Shown here in pieces: positions 56,866-62,593 of a stretch of DNA of 64,000 bases. Source of the stretch: Escherichia phage KarlSchell_Bas89. The notes under the pieces were generated by a model, which saw only the letters and a program-made list of their open reading frames with translations, searched no databases and was not told the DNA's origin. The number at the start of each line of letters is the position of its first letter. Positions within the stretch are counted from its first letter, which is position 1. The position numbers and the translations under genes were made by a program. The stretch is taken from the sequence record PQ850613.1; one strand, 5' to 3'.

Positions 56866-57086
56866 GATGCTTGATACCTTTGAATGTGTTCAATACGAGT
56901 GGATTGAGCAAAAGACGCTTTAACAGCCATTTCTTTAACTTCTTCTTTCCGCTGATTAACGTGTACAGTATCCCAATGTTTATGGTCACGACGTCGCTGT
57001 AATATCTTACTACACTTGCGATGGTTTCCAGTGCTGCGATGTTTCTCACAAATAGGACACTTGCCAAAATTATTACTAAATATCAT
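56862..57086 (-). CDS. small Cys/His-rich protein
   Basis: GKCPICEKHRSTGNHRKC. Confidence 0.35.
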   Translation of the reverse strand: MIFSNNFGKCPICEKHRSTGNHRKCSKILQRRRDHKHWDTVHVNQRKEEVKEMAVKASFAQSTRIEHIQRYQAS

Positions 57087-57310
57087 TTTCTAAATCCTAG
57101 CTTACGCAATACACGGCCTAGCGTTGTTTCTTGTGTGATAATATAGCTGATCGCCTCACGTTCCAACGTGTCAATCTTCATTGGCGACGGATACCATTCA
57201 CCAGTAAGCACACATTTACACTCGACACCATATTTTTTAGATAGGCGGTAATGTTGACCGTTGCGAAGGTTTCTATAAACCGTGGTATGTGTAGTTAACA
57301 TAATCGTCAC
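57083..57310 (-). CDS. hypothetical small protein
   Basis: ORF only. Confidence 0.3.
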   Translation of the reverse strand: MTIMLTTHTTVYRNLRNGQHYRLSKKYGVECKCVLTGEWYPSPMKIDTLEREAISYIITQETTLGRVLRKLGFRK

Positions 57311-57354
57311 CTTTGATTAGATTCTTTGATTAGCACACTGAATCAATGCACTGA

Positions 57355-57392
57355 TAAAAGAAAAGGCGCTGCCCGTTAAGATAGCGCCTTAT
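57355..57392 (-). terminator. rho-independent terminator (minus strand; hairpin flanked by A and T runs)
   Basis: AAGGCGCT...AGCGCCTT 8-bp stem. Confidence 0.55.
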
Positions 57393-57410
57393 GTTGTTTA
57401 TATTGTGGTG

Positions 57411-58322
57411 TTATGCTGCATTTTGACGTGCTGCCATAATCTCAGCCGCTTTCCGCAAGATCTCTTCTTGCTCAGCCGCCGCCGCTTGTTCTGTACGGAT
57501 TGCAACCGTTGAAGAGATACGACCGCGCAGATTATCTAACTTCTCCTGCATTTTTGCGATGGTTGATTCCATTTCATCGGCATAAGAATCCAGTGATTCC
57601 AATTCCTTGCTTGATGCGTTCATCAAGTAGTCATCAGAGATCGCTACGGTTGAAGCCGTTACTTTCTTAATCAGGGAGTCAAAGGACTTCTTAACCTTGC
57701 CCACTTCTTCACTAAGGGCAATAGTGTTATCACTGGTAGCGCCGTTACGCTCATCCGCCAACAGTTTAGCTTCAATACGGATTGCATTCAAGCGTTCAAC
57801 CAGAGCGTAAATATCTTGATTAAAATCTTCCTTTACTTTCGCCGGAATTTGCAGGTGTGCCGCTACGTTATCGTTGCAACCTTTGAAGAAGTTAGGATTA
57901 TCTACTTCGATTTCATCACCTTTGGCGAATTTTTCGAAAGAGTTAGACCAACGAGCGCGGTTTTGTTCCATTTTCGCCTTAATTTGCGCTTCTTTCGCAT
58001 CTTCTTTCGCTTTCGCTTCACCTTCTAAAGTAATCCACTTCTTACGACCATTTGCCGCCTCAGTGTTATATTTGATAGGAGTTAAGAAAGTGATCGCGGT
58101 AGCAATTACATCAAAATCGCGAAAACGTTCAGTTAACAGGAAATCAACCGCCGTCTGCAATACGTCCAACTTCTTACCGTTGCTACGGAAGTGCTGCAAA
58201 TGACCTAACAAGAAGTTAGAAACATCTTGCTTAATTGCCGCGTTGTTGCTACGGATATTGTTAGCCAGTGCATTAAAACCAGATTCGTTAACCAGATTAA
58301 AAACTTTAGCCATGATATTCAC
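57411..58322 (-). CDS. hypothetical early protein (helical)
   Basis: 303-aa ORF directly downstream (minus sense) of the large non-coding region. Confidence 0.45.
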   Translation of the reverse strand: MNIMAKVFNLVNESGFNALANNIRSNNAAIKQDVSNFLLGHLQHFRSNGKKLDVLQTAVDFLLTERFRDFDVIATAITFLTPIKYNTEAANGRKKWITLEGEAKAKEDAKEAQIKAKMEQNRARWSNSFEKFAKGDEIEVDNPNFFKGCNDNVAAHLQIPAKVKEDFNQDIYALVERLNAIRIEAKLLADERNGATSDNTIALSEEVGKVKKSFDSLIKKVTASTVAISDDYLMNASSKELESLDSYADEMESTIAKMQEKLDNLRGRISSTVAIRTEQAAAAEQEEILRKAAEIMAARQNAA

Positions 58323-59134
58323 CTTTCAATTGTAAGGGCGCTATTGCCCCGCTCTCTATGAGCTTGTTTAAGCCACTATTGACTTATCGATAACCACTCA
58401 TTTTTAAGTAGTTATTGATAAGTAAGGGAGTCTTATCAGGAATTAACCTTGCTCCCTTATTATCTGCGATGTTTCATCCGGTATCTTTAATTAGTCGCTA
58501 TAAACTAAGCCGACCTGATAGCGATGATCAATCATCACAATAAGGCAGTGTGCCCGACTCTAATTAGTTACTTTATTGTAACCGTCGGTAATATCGTTTA
58601 CTCTGTTTTCGCTCCCGCCTATCCTTTTGTACCAACTCTCAATCGCTAACCATCGCCCACTACGGGAGGTTATTGCGAAAAAGTCATTAGCCGTCTGATA
58701 CATTGACGTTTGATTATCTTTCAGCAGGTTTACTACATAAACTGATTATGTACGCCATCAATAGTGGCCTCAAATCATTCACTTCGTAAACGTTCACACT
58801 AAACCTTATTGTTAAATAGCAATTTGCTACTCTTTAACCACTCCCCGCCGCTCGCAATTGAGCGTTAATTCTTCGGATTTGCCTACCCTGATTAACTTCT
58901 TTCACCGTAGCGCCTTGTTAGCGATGACCGCCGCTACCCTTAACCGTGGGCGATTAGCTTAAGTCTTTGCGTGCACTCGATGAATCTGCTTATCAGTGGT
59001 GACGTTTCCAGTAAGGGATTGTAAGATTGTTTACTCTGATAACTTAGAGAATCTTACACCGTTTTATCTGGTATGCTATCCGATGGTTATTATCATCTAG
59101 CATATTCAACCGATATAGAAGAATGTTTAAATTG

Positions 59135-59613
59135 TTAAAGAGCGGTAAATCTATCAGTGTGCTTTCTCACACTATGCAACTGTTAGCCGTTGTTACGCTG
59201 TTCACTTCGCGGTGATTTGCTTAGTGAGTGCTCATTATGAATCATGTTGTTTTAGCTGTCAACCACTTTTTTAATCTTTTTTCGTCGTTCCCGCTGTTGG
59301 GAGGATATATCAATCAGCTTTATTTGATTGAAGATTAAGCGGTAAGGCTTAACTTATGATTCATATTTTTAAAGAGCGGTGAAGCATTTACAGCTTAACA
59401 CATCGTGTTAGCTTGTCAACTCTTTTTATCATCTTCTTTTAATTCTTTTCCCTTATCTCGCGTGAATCTTTGCGAAAGGGCAAGATGATAAATTTTTAAA
59501 GAGCGGGATGTTTCAAGTCATCGCTGACTGTGCTCATTATGTATCAGGCTTTTTCCGGTGTCAATACTCTTTTTCAAGTATTTTCACTTTCTAGCCTGAT
59601 TTTTAAAGAGCGG
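59135..59613. repeat. array of four TTTTTAAAGAGCGG repeats plus three TGTCAAnnACTnTTTTT motifs within a 1.6 kb non-coding region
   Basis: Copies at about 59135, 59366, 59493, 59600; no ORF of 60 aa or more apart from one weak 68-aa ORF. Confidence 0.55.
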
Positions 59614-59948
59614 GGCAATTTCTTGCCTTGTATGTTTTACATCGTACCCGATGAAATGAAGTATACGCTAATCGGACGGGTATGCAATAGGGATAAGCAA
59701 ATTATTTTAAACTTTTTTGAAAGGTGGGAAGTGTAAGAGAGTGCGCGCGGGATAACATACGCAAAACAGGCTGTAAATCACTTTCTAACGTCCTGTAAGC
59801 CATCCTAACGAGCTAATCAGGGATAAGGCATACAATCACCCCAGAAACGAGAAAAGCCTCACTAGGAGGCTTATAGGAAGGATTTAGAGCATCAGATAGA
59901 TTATGACCATAGGCATGACTACGGCACAATACAGGAGAAAGATTAGCC

Positions 59949-60314
59949 CTATGGATTTACACATTGACCGTTACCGGATGCTACTTCATTCATAGACTCA
60001 TCGAACAAGGTTAGGGATGAGCGTAACAGGTGATCGATCATGATTTGCTTGCCAGTGGTTTCATTTACCAACTGGATAGTTTTATCGAATGATTGTACCC
60101 GATTGAAATCACTAACGTGTAAAATAATAACCTTCGGTGACTTTTTACCAGTGTCATAATTCTCAATCAAATAGGTGCACTGTAAACCGTCAACCGTAGC
60201 AGGGGAGAACGTTACAGCCTTAACATTACCCATAGACGAGAAGAATAGCGCCACCGTAGCAACGAACAAGCCACGCCAAAAATAATCACGAATCACTATT
60301 GCTATCCTCGCCAA
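59949..60314 (-). CDS. secreted/membrane protein (N-terminal hydrophobic segment)
   Basis: FWRGLFVATVALFFSSMGNVKA. Confidence 0.35.
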   Translation of the reverse strand: MARIAIVIRDYFWRGLFVATVALFFSSMGNVKAVTFSPATVDGLQCTYLIENYDTGKKSPKVIILHVSDFNRVQSFDKTIQLVNETTGKQIMIDHLLRSSLTLFDESMNEVASGNGQCVNP

Positions 60315-60568
60315 AAAAATGCTACGCTAATCTGTTCCACTTCTTCCAGCGATAGAAGAATCCCACGTTGGGCTAAATACTTCCCAACAGTTAGATAGTC
60401 CTGCACTAAACAGACAACAGGAAAGCGGATAGTTTGTATCTCACCCTTAGAAAGAAAGGATAAATATCCAACGTCACTTGACTCATCAAAGGATAGTGTA
60501 ACTCCACCGTAATTGTGCGTATCAATTAGCGCAATAGTTTCATTTCCCATAATATTTCCAATCCTCAT
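60302..60568 (-). CDS. hypothetical small protein
   Basis: ORF only. Confidence 0.3.
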   Translation of the reverse strand: MRIGNIMGNETIALIDTHNYGGVTLSFDESSDVGYLSFLSKGEIQTIRFPVVCLVQDYLTVGKYLAQRGILLSLEEVEQISVAFFWRG

Positions 60569-61116
60569 TATTGTTTAGCACTGATACAATCAGCCAGATT
60601 AATATGAATGGTGTACATCGCATTATCTTCGCTATTGTAAACCGTGGTAGCAAGTATTGATTCATTTATCGGGCCATAGCTGACCAGATTAGTGACAGCT
60701 TTCGCATGGCTGTAACGTTGTACAGTGCCATATGTAACTAGTTCGGGATCGTTATCAGTACGCTTTAATAACAGATCTTCATTGCCCTGATTATCTAGTG
60801 TTTTGGTACTAACGACCAGACCATCACGGGAAACATTACTAAGTTTAACTTTTAAAACGACCTGATTGGTGTCACTATCCGCACCATTACAGATTAGCCA
60901 TTGCTTCGGTGCAGTCTTAACGAATAGACTAGCGGCATCATTAGCAACAGGAGCAGGACTAGCAACAGCGTTGTCAGAGATAGCACCAACGGCAGCACTG
61001 ACACCGATAGCTGCAACCAGTGCATAACTTGCAAGGTTAATAGATTGCATAACTCTGATACGTGTATTCATAATCCTACCCTTATAAAATAGATTTAATT
61101 TGATTGTATGTTTCAC
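60568..61116 (-). CDS. secreted protein (signal peptide)
   Basis: MQSINLASYALVAAIGVSAAVGAIS. Confidence 0.4.
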   Translation of the reverse strand: MKHTIKLNLFYKGRIMNTRIRVMQSINLASYALVAAIGVSAAVGAISDNAVASPAPVANDAASLFVKTAPKQWLICNGADSDTNQVVLKVKLSNVSRDGLVVSTKTLDNQGNEDLLLKRTDNDPELVTYGTVQRYSHAKAVTNLVSYGPINESILATTVYNSEDNAMYTIHINLADCISAKQ

Positions 61117-61479
61117 AAAGTAGCACGTATATCTTATTCATACGTAGGGCCATTGCTCAGTTGACCGCTTCACTGACCTGATAGTGTTCTGGCTTGCGCC
61201 AGTCAATCACGGAGTCCTTACTTTTAAACATTCTCACTTACTTAAGCTGATTAGCCTTCGGTGAGCTTACTACGTTAAGAAGCTACTTTGCATCACTGCT
61301 TTACTTCCTAACTACAAACTACACTCGCAACTATATATTAAAGGAAAAGATTGTCAACCATTTATTTTCTGACTTTCTCATAACTTATTGGATTATAAAG
61401 GAATTTAATTTACTAAACTTTCTCATTCAGGGCATAGATTACTACTTCTATTGTTACACTATCACATAACGCCAGACAT

Positions 61480-62016
61480 ACGGGGAGAACAGGCCGCATA
61501 AACAGACATACGGGGCAACGGTACAACGCAACCAGCACGGGGGAAGGATAAACGGGTAACATATAATGTATGTTGTTACATGATGCTATGGTTAGCGGCT
61601 TGCGGAAGTAATATACCAATCAAATAATTCACTCATCAAACTATCACGCACTGCGTGCAACGCTGAAAAAGAAAGAGATTAAAAGAATAACATAAAGAAA
61701 CAATTAAAAGAATAATAATAACATCAATTATCAATACCAATCTAACTATTACATACATCATTAATCCACTCATAATTATCACTCATAGAATCATTTACAT
61801 TCAAACTATGGGGCGATGTGATGGTTACTATCCTATACTATTCTACCTGCAATAATGTGCCCTTTACTAGTTCCTATACAGTGCTAGCCTCTCATACCCT
61901 CCCAATTAATGAATGAAATAAACGGGGCAAAAGTAATGCCTACTATATTACACGGGGTAACAACCTCAAGGGATAGGACACGGGGAAGACTGGAACGTTC
62001 AGGCATGTTCACGGGG
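61480..62016. repeat. eight (C)ACGGGG repeats in two clusters flanking an AT-rich spacer (iteron-like)
   Basis: Copies at 61480, 61510, 61537, 61552 (degenerate), 61922, 61952, 61980, 62011, spaced about 27-31 bp within clusters; AT-rich 61620-61900 between. Confidence 0.55.
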
Positions 62017-62150
62017 AAAGGAGGAAGCGAGGGAATAGCCATAATTTAAATGAGGACTCCCCCTTTTTAGGAAACGCGCTCGGAGGGGCTAGGTCCACTC
62101 GGTCAAATCAGAATTTTAAACTGTTATATATAAGGTTGAGAGAGGAATTA

Positions 62151-62312
62151 ATGAATCTAATTAAAGTGTTTAGACGGATGAAATGTAAACACAATTACTA
62201 CCTTCTTCGTAAAGCTTACGGGGATGAAAGAGTACACGGGCTATACCTATCAACATGGAAATGTAAGGATTGTGGTAAGCTACGGTTTAGTGAATGGATA
62301 GACAGACCGTAA
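62151..62312 (+). CDS. small zinc-ribbon protein (53 aa, below track cutoff)
   Basis: ATG with GAGAGAGG upstream; CKH...CKDCG cysteine pairs. Confidence 0.35.
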   Translation: MNLIKVFRRMKCKHNYYLLRKAYGDERVHGLYLSTWKCKDCGKLRFSEWIDRP

Positions 62313-62593
62313 TGGAATGGATATTCTGGTTAGTAATAATCTTCTGTTTGTTCATCTGCTTCTCTATAGCAAGATGTATCAAATATGACTAAGCCTTAAC
62401 ATGACATGGCCTTTATGTGAGGTCCCCTTTATATCAGAGGATATAGTAAATATGACAGAAGATGAATACGGTAGCTTCTCTGAAGAAGACTACGAAATAG
62501 AATACAGATATACTCACGGGGTGGCCTTAATATGAGTGAGTCATCAAAGATGACGACCCCTTTATGTCTTCCCTTTTTCAGAGGAGAATTAAT

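Follow-up and report, generated by a model that had tools for sequence, protein, structure and literature searches.

What does a phage keep in about 1.6 kb of DNA that holds scarcely an open reading frame? The question arises from the genome of Escherichia phage KarlSchell_Bas89 (PQ850613.1), of which a 64,000-nt stretch, here called the window, was analysed. The gap is bounded by the start codon of a 300-aa gene (58313) and the stop codon of a 121-aa ORF (59949), and everything described below is read on the minus strand unless stated. The first-pass annotation had called the interval ORF-poor and rightly so, since the ORF listing gives only frames of 30-68 aa within it, including one of 68 aa on the plus strand (59530-59736), and none is conserved in relatives. 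The source is a phiEco32-like podophage of the Gordonclarkvirinae; phiEco32 serves as a model of how phages control E. coli RNA polymerase, and the BASEL collection includes nine of its relatives (Bas86-Bas94). A nucleotide search gave matches to the region in 97 phage records from Kuravirus, Nieuwekanaalvirus and Suseptimavirus, with identities of 80-96%; in these genomes it is found 2-4 kb short of the right end. Searches of the flanking proteins against Pfam and PHROGs returned nothing beyond "unknown function" and a doubtful "terminase" label on the 121-aa protein. The 300-aa gene (57411-58313) is a homologue of phiEco32 gp124, falls into phrog_13018, which is annotated as of unknown function, and is preceded by the Shine-Dalgarno sequence AAAGGTGA (58326-58319). 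On the other side of the gap an intrinsic terminator closes the upstream right-end operon (59845-59872; hairpin AAGCCTC-CTAGT-GAGGCTT followed by a T-run). The terminator scan found it, a pattern search recovered it with a variable loop in 11 of 17 phages, and it is also present in the 4E8 annotation and in Table S2 of the SU10 description (PMC4281155). We think it probable that the interval between these landmarks is the main early transcription control region and is organized like an rRNA operon, with Nus-factor (rrn-type) antitermination protecting the sigma70-dependent transcription of a large untranslated leader RNA.

The repeats in the right half of the gap are the most visible part of this arrangement. 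All three repeat families that had been noticed at first sight were recovered: a 16-nt family ATTTTTAAAGAGCGG(G/T) at 59131-59146, 59365-59380, 59492-59507 and 59599-59614, close to the approximate positions first given (59135, 59366, 59493 and 59600); TGTCAA followed by a T-run at 59257-59272, 59414-59429 and 59559-59575; and two copies of GTGCTCATTATG, at 59228 and 59530, within a 56-nt direct repeat. The start-to-start spacings of 234, 127 and 107 bp fit the degenerate units of 110-240 bp that had been described. The first-pass annotation regarded the whole set as a possible cluster of strong early promoters, and for two of the families this reading holds: TGTCAAnnACTnTTTTT is a -35 box with an upstream A-tract and TGCTCATTATG is a -10 box, which together make near-consensus sigma70 promoters on the minus strand. 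It does not hold for the commonest repeat, which is a putative boxA and not a promoter element.

The promoters were located by a promoter scan and by a separate scan over 17 phages. TTGACA-17-CATAAT occurs twice (11/12 match in the promoter scan), and TTGACA-16-TAAGCT and TTGCAT-16-TATACT once each. P1 (59536-59575) consists of the A-tract GAAAAAGAG at 59575-59567, TTGACA at 59564-59559 and CATAAT at 59541-59536, and is kept in relatives. P2 (59392-59429) has the A-tract ATAAAAAGAG, TTGACA at 59419-59414 and TAAGCT at 59397-59392, with a TG just upstream of the -10 box. P3 (59234-59272) has the A-tract AAAAAAGTG at 59272-59264, TTGACA at 59262-59257 and CATAAT at 59239-59234; it is present in 17 of 17 phages, between -940 and -959 from the gp124 start. 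The spacer of phage SU10 holds three sigma70 promoters, as does that of phiEco32 (PMC4281155, text and Table S2), and those listed for SU10 at 73996, 73668 and 73511 are identical or nearly so to P1, P2 and P3, the sequence ttgacaagctaacacgatgtgttaagctgtaaatg of P2 being identical to its SU10 counterpart. P1-P3 would thus be the early sigma70 promoters of KarlSchell_Bas89, corresponding to those already published for SU10 and phiEco32, and their activity is predicted from this likeness. The A-tracts upstream of the -35 boxes resemble UP elements. We also propose a candidate promoter, P0 (59660-59687), which appears to be the weakest of the four and was previously unreported; its TTGCAT (59687-59682) and TATACT (59665-59660) are separated by 16 nt and lie upstream of the first boxA. 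The pattern TTGCA(T/A/C)-16-TATACT is kept in the Kuravirus relatives, and the others carry a different promoter-like element before the first boxA. From the promoter sequences, the leftward starts are expected at about 59653, 59529, 59385 and 59227.

On the minus strand the commonest repeat, TTTTTAAAGAGCGG, reads CCGCTCTTTAAAAA, and in this form it matches the gamma-proteobacterial boxA consensus GYTCTTTAANA (PMC5725501) exactly, four times. The exact minus-strand cores lie at 59133-59143, 59367-59377, 59494-59504 and 59601-59611. The window contains five matches to this consensus against 0.58 expected, a number reached by none of 100 shuffles, and four of them are clustered within 480 nt of a single strand. 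In the order of transcription, boxA-A (CCGCTCTTTAAAAAT, 59599-59613) is followed by boxA-B (CCGCTCTTTAAAAATTTATCA, 59492-59506), about 25 nt past the predicted P1 start, by boxA-C (CCGCTCTTTAAAAAT, 59365-59379) and by boxA-D (CCGCTCTTTAACAAT, 59131-59145), the last boxA, which every transcript from the array would traverse. The likeness to the host reaches beyond the core: the E. coli rrnH leader reads TGCTCTTTAACAATTTATCAG, to which boxA-D (GCTCTTTAACAATTTA) is identical at 16 of 16 positions and boxA-B (GCTCTTTAAAAATTTATCA) at 18 of 19. All 16 relatives that were fetched carry 3-5 exact copies on the same strand of the same spacer. Taken over 17 phages, the 71 copies yield C-GCTCTTTAA(A/C/T)AAT as their consensus, with conservation also at positions that the search pattern did not specify; over the 53 distinct copies it extends to the flanking positions -1, +11 and +12. 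In 17 of 17 phages promoters and boxA copies strictly alternate, with a promoter-like element 8-120 nt upstream of every boxA on the same strand (the starts being predicted), and boxA-D keeps a fixed place at -828 to -836 from the gp124 ATG. Promoter-boxA modules have been gained and lost among these phages, which have 3-5 each. No boxA accompanies the right-end promoter at 61357, whose genes are translated. Taken together, these patterns suggest that the four repeats are rrn-type boxA antitermination signals which would act at the RNA level.

In most cases a short hairpin seems to precede the boxA. When the 45 nt ahead of each copy were folded as single sequences, they gave GGCAA-GAAA-TTGCC abutting boxA-A (59614-59627), likewise present in 4E8 and Bas93, and GTCA-GCGA-TGAC before boxA-B. 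Twelve nucleotides upstream of boxA-D, the alignment and RNAalifold gave AGUGUG-AGAAAG-CACACU (59156-59173), in which the three outer pairs covary (AU/GC, GC/AU, UA/CG/GC/AU) and neither the inner GUG/CAC nor the loop varies; its position is that of boxB in rrn leaders. No boxC-like GU-rich UGUGUGGG was seen downstream of the boxA copies. The spacing is not comfortable everywhere: boxA-C begins only about 8 nt past the predicted P2 start, which counts against the model. Further downstream, within helices H14/H15 of the RNA described below, there is a boxA-like sequence, GCTATTTAACAA (58809-58820), which differs from the rrn boxA in one of 12 positions (position 4, C to A) and is invariant in 18 sequences. 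It probably does not function as a boxA, C4 being among the positions changed in the suhB boxA double mutant. This mutant (C4T/T6C) lost its association with SuhB (PMC5725501).

More questions are raised by the repeat-free left half of the gap, which had been taken for an empty spacer. Covariation in an alignment of 18 sequences indicates that some 800 nt of it (58335-59131) form a structured RNA that has been conserved. On these sequences RNAalifold predicted 228 base pairs, of which 69 show compensatory changes, although the compensatory cells are not independent events because the sequences are related (75-98% identical to one another). Paired cells amount to 99.0% as against 34-49% when the partners are slid, and the 69 covarying pairs compare with 5-9 in the slid controls and 29.3±3.3 in shuffled ones. 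The pairing is specific to one strand, with 444 G·U cells (10.8%) and only 13 A·C cells (0.3%), and the z-score of the minimum free energy is -6.0. The RNA contains about 37 helices with conserved loops, laid out as a 5' domain closed by 59131-59119/58845-58833, a central domain closed by 58812-58803/58546-58537, and 3' hairpins. Compared with SU7 the leader is 92.6% identical and the flanking genes 55-76%; altogether it is at least as well conserved as the flanking genes and almost free of indels. The long-range helix H1, between the flank of boxA-D and the ribosome-binding site of gp124, showed zero covariation. A second, "anti-boxA" pairing (58822-58838/59134-59150) was rejected, being absent from most relatives, as was an internal duplication of the two halves of the RNA (local alignment score 26, shuffle maximum 29). 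None of the 4227 models of Rfam 15 matched at E≤1 over 56000-62500, and at E≤10 over 58300-59300 there were only chance-level hits (E 1.8-6.7, far under the gathering scores). The element thus seems to be an undescribed conserved structured non-coding RNA, whose expression is predicted from its place behind the promoters.

How would these parts work together? According to our model, the four tandem sigma70 promoters P0-P3 would each fire leftward, and the nascent transcript would carry, 8-85 nt from its start and usually after a short hairpin, an rrn-type boxA (GCUCUUUAA[A/C]AAU). The boxA RNA would recruit the host NusB-NusE(S10) together with NusA, NusG and SuhB, which would make the elongating E. 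coli RNA polymerase fast and resistant to Rho. The modified polymerase would make the untranslated, multi-domain RNA and then continue into the gp124 homologue, the first protein-coding gene downstream, and the remaining early genes. If boxA were lacking, so long an untranslated stretch would naturally attract Rho, a logic that holds for rRNA and CRISPR arrays too. On the other hand, the RNA is poor in C (17.5% C, 23% G) and heavily paired and may for this reason be a poor Rho substrate regardless; the boxA copies may instead serve the whole early operon of about 25 kb. We infer the transcripts, the Nus binding with its suppression of termination, and the function of the RNA. Our best guess is that the RNA is not a mere spacer but a folded leader, or a processed RNA acting in host takeover. 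A bolder version, which we put forward only tentatively, is that it belongs to a class of large functional phage RNAs not recognised before, and that the phage makes it with rRNA antitermination and folding machinery taken over from the host via boxA; it may be released by processing at the flanking complementary segments and act in trans in the first minutes of infection. Possible trans-acting roles are host takeover, the titration of Nus or ribosomal factors, or the countering of a defence system.

Could the same layout serve something other than early transcription? Besides the early promoter cluster, which stands for the right half of the gap, the first-pass annotation had thought of an origin and of a packaging or terminal region. 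A transcription-activated replication origin, in which the folded transcript forms an R-loop or primer and the 14-nt repeats are perhaps iterons, would account for the conserved direct repeats, and a conserved fold would suit a primer RNA that depends on its folding. The tandem promoters ahead of a long non-coding tract also recall the T7 primary origin (phi1.1A/B) and ColE1 RNA II, a resemblance which speaks for this idea. However, the repeats are irregularly spaced (107-234 bp) for iterons and are exact host boxA sequences including the rrn flank, no DnaA box with up to one mismatch was found in 56434-61019, the GC content of 0.40 is not unusually low, and the extreme of the cumulative GC skew falls at about 62 kb and not in the region. 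Some 37 helices with conserved loops far exceed the needs of a primer, and the strand-specific base-pairing also argues against an origin, which we consider unlikely and not supported, although a variant with an RNA primer keeps a small probability. Repeat-rich, non-coding DNA near the right end of related linear genomes could also be the genome terminus or a site of packaging (terminal repeat, pac or cos). The 206-bp direct terminal repeat annotated in 4E8, however, aligns with 89% identity to 61887-62079, about 2 kb to the right, and the SU10 read ends map to a 193-bp terminal repeat and not to the spacer (PMC4281155). We therefore reject this reading, whose chance of being right is minimal.

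The boxA likeness might also be a coincidence, the CCGCTCTTTAAAAA repeats being DNA operators for a phage or host regulator of the early promoters. They do lie between promoters, they are invariant in all relatives, and early sigma70 transcription is shut off by the phage (PMC12276001). The known shut-off factor gp79, however, targets RNA polymerase and not DNA (PMC12276001), the distance from repeat to the neighbouring promoter on either side varies from 8 to 120 nt, which is not what an operator would show, every copy of this non-palindromic motif is oriented with transcription, and the identity with the rrn leader runs past the boxA core; operators are in our opinion quite improbable. Finally, are several small proteins encoded here, conserved at the protein level and mostly missed by gene callers? 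Several GenBank records, among them CHD5UKE1, 101114UKE3 and EK5, have 5-10 tiny genes annotated over the region, which could be taken in favour of this reading and which we regard as spurious. They lie on both strands and differ between records, no ORF of at least 40 aa common to all relatives was found in the left 850-nt leader, and PAS59 and TH34 have no ORF of this length anywhere in it. The substitutions are compensatory in RNA helices, as the excess of G·U over A·C cells also reflects, and we give a set of overlooked proteins almost no credence. Conserved small genes, with repeats missing from relatives, had been named at the outset as the observation that would overturn the regulatory reading; what we found is the opposite, not one conserved ORF and the repeats in every relative.

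The closest known counterpart of antiterminated early transcription as proposed here is the E. coli rrn leader, with its tandem promoters P1/P2 with UP elements, the order boxB-boxA-boxC, in which boxB and boxC are not strictly required, and a long structured untranslated RNA. The phage region shares with it the tandem strong sigma70 promoters with A-tracts before the -35 boxes, an identical boxA sequence (GCTCTTTAACAATTTA), what looks like the rrn order of hairpin and boxA, and a predicted long, highly structured untranslated product directly downstream. Unlike in the rrn leader, this product is something other than rRNA and has no match in Rfam, it is followed by protein-coding early genes, and there is one boxA per promoter, four in total, instead of a single one, with no boxC seen. 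As at the nut sites of lambdoid phages (boxA, boxB and N protein), host Nus factors would be used via a boxA just past the early promoters, making early transcription resistant to termination. The lambda boxA, CGCUCUUA, is weaker, whereas the phage copies have the full rrn consensus, and the phage hairpins lie upstream of boxA, whereas in a nut site boxA comes before a boxB hairpin bound by an N protein. We know of no N-like protein in phiEco32-like phages; the phage is virulent and later switches to its own sigma factor, gp36. The three close, strong, host-type promoters near the genome end which drive early genes are reminiscent of the A1-A2-A3 cluster of T7, which to our knowledge has a short leader and no boxA. 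GOLLD, ROOL, OLE and HEARO, whose biochemical function is unknown and of which GOLLD and ROOL are phage-associated, are similar in their length of hundreds of nucleotides, their many covarying helices and their multi-domain form. Unlike them, the phage RNA is placed as a 5' leader behind boxA, and no covariance model matched it. An rrn-type boxA with the consensus GYTCTTTAANA also precedes long untranslated transcripts in CRISPR arrays, where it prevents Rho termination (Stringer et al. 2020, PMC7665894), and in the suhB 5' UTR (Baniulyte et al. 2017, PMC5725501). In contrast to these cases, the phage boxA copies belong to an early region, are multiple and in tandem, and lead into a single large fold and not a repeat array.

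As far as the published descriptions of SU10 and phiEco32 consulted here go, they contain only promoters and a terminator, with neither boxA nor a structured RNA mentioned there. The literature searched gave no pairing of phiEco32 with boxA, no non-coding RNA of phiEco32 and no report of boxA in the early region of a virulent phage; Savalia 2008 and Pavlova 2012, the two primary papers on phiEco32, may already remark on this stretch, a gap of 1.9 kb between genes 124 and 125. The text of the BASEL paper contains none of the words "non-coding", "noncoding", "intergenic" or "boxA". About 8,500 short viral RNA motifs have been catalogued (PMC10690425), and parts of the RNA could overlap with some of them. 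The RNA has been found so far only in about 100 phages of E. coli and Shigella and a few metagenome contigs. Blastn against phages with "distant" settings gave no relatives beyond the 97 records, a number equal to that obtained for gp124 by tblastn. IMG/VR has five loci, four of them known phages, and a scan of metagenomes with a conserved 21-mer gave seven contigs, all 87-90% identical. In E. coli genomes nothing matched the RNA region, and similarity was confined to the short boxA motif.

If our reading is true, a virulent phage without an N protein exploits Nus antitermination via an rrn-type boxA behind every early promoter. An RNA of about 800 nt with about 37 helices and 69 covarying pairs, in an E. 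coli phage that is easy to manipulate, would be a rare large RNA accessible to experiment. The boxA copies would also offer an answer to how host polymerase crosses the long early region, a question that Lavysh et al. reportedly raised in 2022 and considered open in the related phage 7-11. In the leader of phage 7-11 and its relatives we could find no boxA, and homology of this leader to the present RNA was rejected (E>1 in nhmmer with the full alignment). A covariance model, R1, built on the 123-nt arm 58881-59003 of the RNA likewise matched only itself. The leader of these phages is nevertheless an ORF-free stretch of about 1.2 kb behind tandem early promoters, which hints at a wider, unrecognised habit among prolate-headed podophages.

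The ORF-poor region of 1.6 kb (about 58330-59940, read on the minus strand) has counterparts, 80-96% identical, in 97 phage records, which all belong to phiEco32-group podophages of E. coli or Shigella (Kuravirus, Nieuwekanaalvirus and Suseptimavirus, Gordonclarkvirinae), in which it lies 2-4 kb from the right genome end. The phiEco32 equivalent comprises 1,944 bp between genes 124 and 125, with no annotation inside. Downstream of the region lies the gp124 homologue (300 aa, 57411-58313, minus strand) and upstream a 121-aa ORF (59949-60314, minus strand), commonly labelled 'terminase', which is probably an annotation artefact. A single tRNA-Arg (anticodon TCT, 53287-53363, minus strand) matches reports for phiEco32-like genomes. 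The first-pass annotation had placed the repeats correctly, with the 16-nt family starting at 59131, 59365, 59492 and 59599. The GTGCTCATTATG elements, and those of TGTCAA with a T-run, were likewise recovered; every repeat type can be interpreted on the minus, transcribed strand. When reverse-complemented, TGTCAAnnACTnTTTTT reads AAAAAnAGTnnTTGACA, where an A-tract leads into a perfect -35 hexamer, and TGCTCATTATG becomes CATAATGAGCA, with a -10 hexamer inside. The A-tracts presumably act as UP elements. A promoter scan found TTGACA-17-CATAAT twice (11/12 match each), with a third promoter, TTGACA-16-TAAGCT, between them. The same three sigma70 promoters are listed for SU10 'as in phiEco32' (PMC4281155 and Table S2), as is the terminator at 59872-59854 (PMC4281155 Table S2), and this part of the region was already known. 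A weaker candidate, P0 (TTGCAT-16-TATACT, 59687-59660, minus strand), is conserved among Kuravirus relatives.

The main repeat, TTTTTAAAGAGCGG, reads CCGCTCTTTAAAAA on the minus strand and, judged by its sequence, is a boxA. Functional boxA elements of gamma-proteobacteria follow the consensus GYTCTTTAANA (Baniulyte et al. 2017, PMC5725501); the window matches it exactly at five places, where 0.58 would be expected, and four of these lie on the minus strand inside 480 nt. When the E. coli rrnH leader was read directly (TGCTCTTTAACAATTTATCAG), copy D (59143-59133 plus flank) proved identical to it across 16 nt, and copy B matched at 18 of 19 positions. Three to five exact copies are kept on the minus-equivalent strand in all 16 relatives. 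The alternation of promoter and boxA is strict across the 17 phages despite differing module number and spacing, and the last boxA is always 828-836 nt upstream of the gp124 start codon. Among 53 distinct copies, conservation extends outside the search pattern (consensus C-GCTCTTTAA(A/C/T)AAT). Located 12 nt upstream of boxA-D is a hairpin whose AGAAAG loop is invariant and three of whose pairs covary; ahead of copies A and B stand short hairpins closed by GAAA or GCGA loops. This order of hairpin and then boxA is that of boxB and boxA in rrn leaders. An rrn-type boxA behind each early promoter of a virulent phage appears to be new. A strong promoter further right (TTGACA-16-TATAGT, 61357-61330, minus strand) drives the right-end operon of translated genes and has no boxA.

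The left half of the region is, judged by covariation, a structured RNA. From boxA-D to the gp124 start, relatives share 75-98% identity with indels nearly absent, and conservation equals or exceeds that of neighbouring genes (92.6% against SU7, compared with 55-76% for the flanking genes). RNAalifold, applied to an 18-sequence alignment, predicted 37 helices comprising 228 pairs, of which 69 show compensatory changes; slid controls yielded 5-9 such pairs and shuffles 29.3±3.3, and none of 500 shuffles attained 69. Of the 4,096 cells counted on this structure, 99.0% hold standard pairs (34-49% in slid controls) and 222 are compensatory (against 7-18). G·U accounts for 10.8% of the cells and A·C for 0.3%, and the pairing is therefore valid only for a minus-sense RNA, which matches the promoter sense. 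The window's own leader folds 6 standard deviations better than its shuffles. The predicted fold consists of a 5' domain (closing helix 59131-59119/58845-58833, minus strand), a central domain (58812-58803/58546-58537, minus strand) and then eight 3' hairpins on the same strand, the last of which stops 20 nt short of the ribosome-binding site of gp124. Since no strong terminator was found after the RNA, it is most simply an early-operon leader. It matched no Rfam family, and this large conserved structured RNA appears to be new.

We propose that host sigma70 polymerase would initiate at the four tandem promoters P0-P3, that boxA, exposed early in each transcript, would load NusB-S10 and other Nus factors, and that the modified polymerase would stay Rho-resistant across some 800 nt of untranslated RNA and further. 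The same arrangement is known from rRNA operons, and CRISPR arrays have been shown to follow the same boxA logic (Stringer et al. 2020, PMC7665894). Conservation, apparent module exchange between genera and complexity argue that the RNA itself has some specific role. Both the boxA elements and the structured RNA lend themselves to direct tests in a standard E. coli phage. Within helices H14/H15 lies an internal boxA-like GCTATTTAACAA (58809-58820, minus strand), which matches rrn boxA at 11 of 12 positions, differs by C-to-A at position 4 and is unchanged in all 18 sequences. Position 4 is one of the two mutated (C4T/T6C) in the suhB boxA double mutant, in which SuhB association was lost (PMC5725501); the internal element could be a decayed or structural copy. 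We also observed that a boxA-A segment (59604-59619) is complementary to the leader 3' end (58343-58358) at 15 of 16 positions, and that the boxA-D flank (59140-59150) is able to pair with 58317-58327, the Shine-Dalgarno region of the gp124 homologue. Either pairing might build a processing stem like that of rRNA, or might couple translation to boxA occupancy; the paired segments are invariant and so show no covariation.

Could the region serve another purpose? It had been suggested to be an origin, a packaging or terminal region, or a cluster of early promoters, and the last of these holds for the right half, through the sigma70 set published for SU10. A genome terminus is excluded, as the direct terminal repeat of 4E8 has its homologue at 61887-62079, which also places the junction of the genome ends inside the window. 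The cumulative GC skew reaches its minimum at about 62 kb of the window, and a classical replication origin is not supported by repeats, skew or DnaA-box checks; an RNA-primed origin of the ColE1 type would be a less likely alternative. DNA operators would not account for the variable distances of the repeats or for how far their identity to rrn extends. Nor do small proteins fit: the substitution pattern contradicts them, the region's ORFs are all short and none is conserved, and the leader holds no ORF of at least 40 aa common to relatives, two of which have none at all. Several GenBank records carry 5-10 tiny 'hypothetical proteins' over the RNA and promoter array, and the NJ01 record a 'cathepsin L-like' protein in the same non-coding region (L002:3195-4785, L007:2584-4254, L011:3692-3859); these are probably annotation artefacts.

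The RNA was found in 97 phage records, as was gp124, and in a handful of metagenome contigs, with no match in E. coli genomes. The RNAs of SU7 and 101114UKE3 are 92% identical to that of the window (58314-59130 against L004-L007), compared with 55-76% for their flanking genes, while the RNAs of PAS59 and TH34 reach just 75-76%, with flanking genes about as distant as SU7's. This pattern suggests that the RNA module has been exchanged between genera through recombination. The searchable literature on these phages reports the promoters and terminator and mentions neither boxA nor a structured RNA; fragments of the present RNA could overlap with entries in a large catalogue of short viral RNA motifs. 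Salmonella phage 7-11 and its relatives, which belong to a different family and also have a prolate head, carry tandem sigma70 promoters and then, before gp151, a leader of about 1.2 kb free of ORFs (L030:4865-5917, minus strand; L031:1-320). It lacks boxA and shows no detectable homology to the Kuravirus RNA. Within it, some 235 nt form a core that is nearly invariant in three otherwise diverged phages (columns 685-920 of the 7-11-group alignment), and the leader may represent a second large leader RNA, independent of the first.
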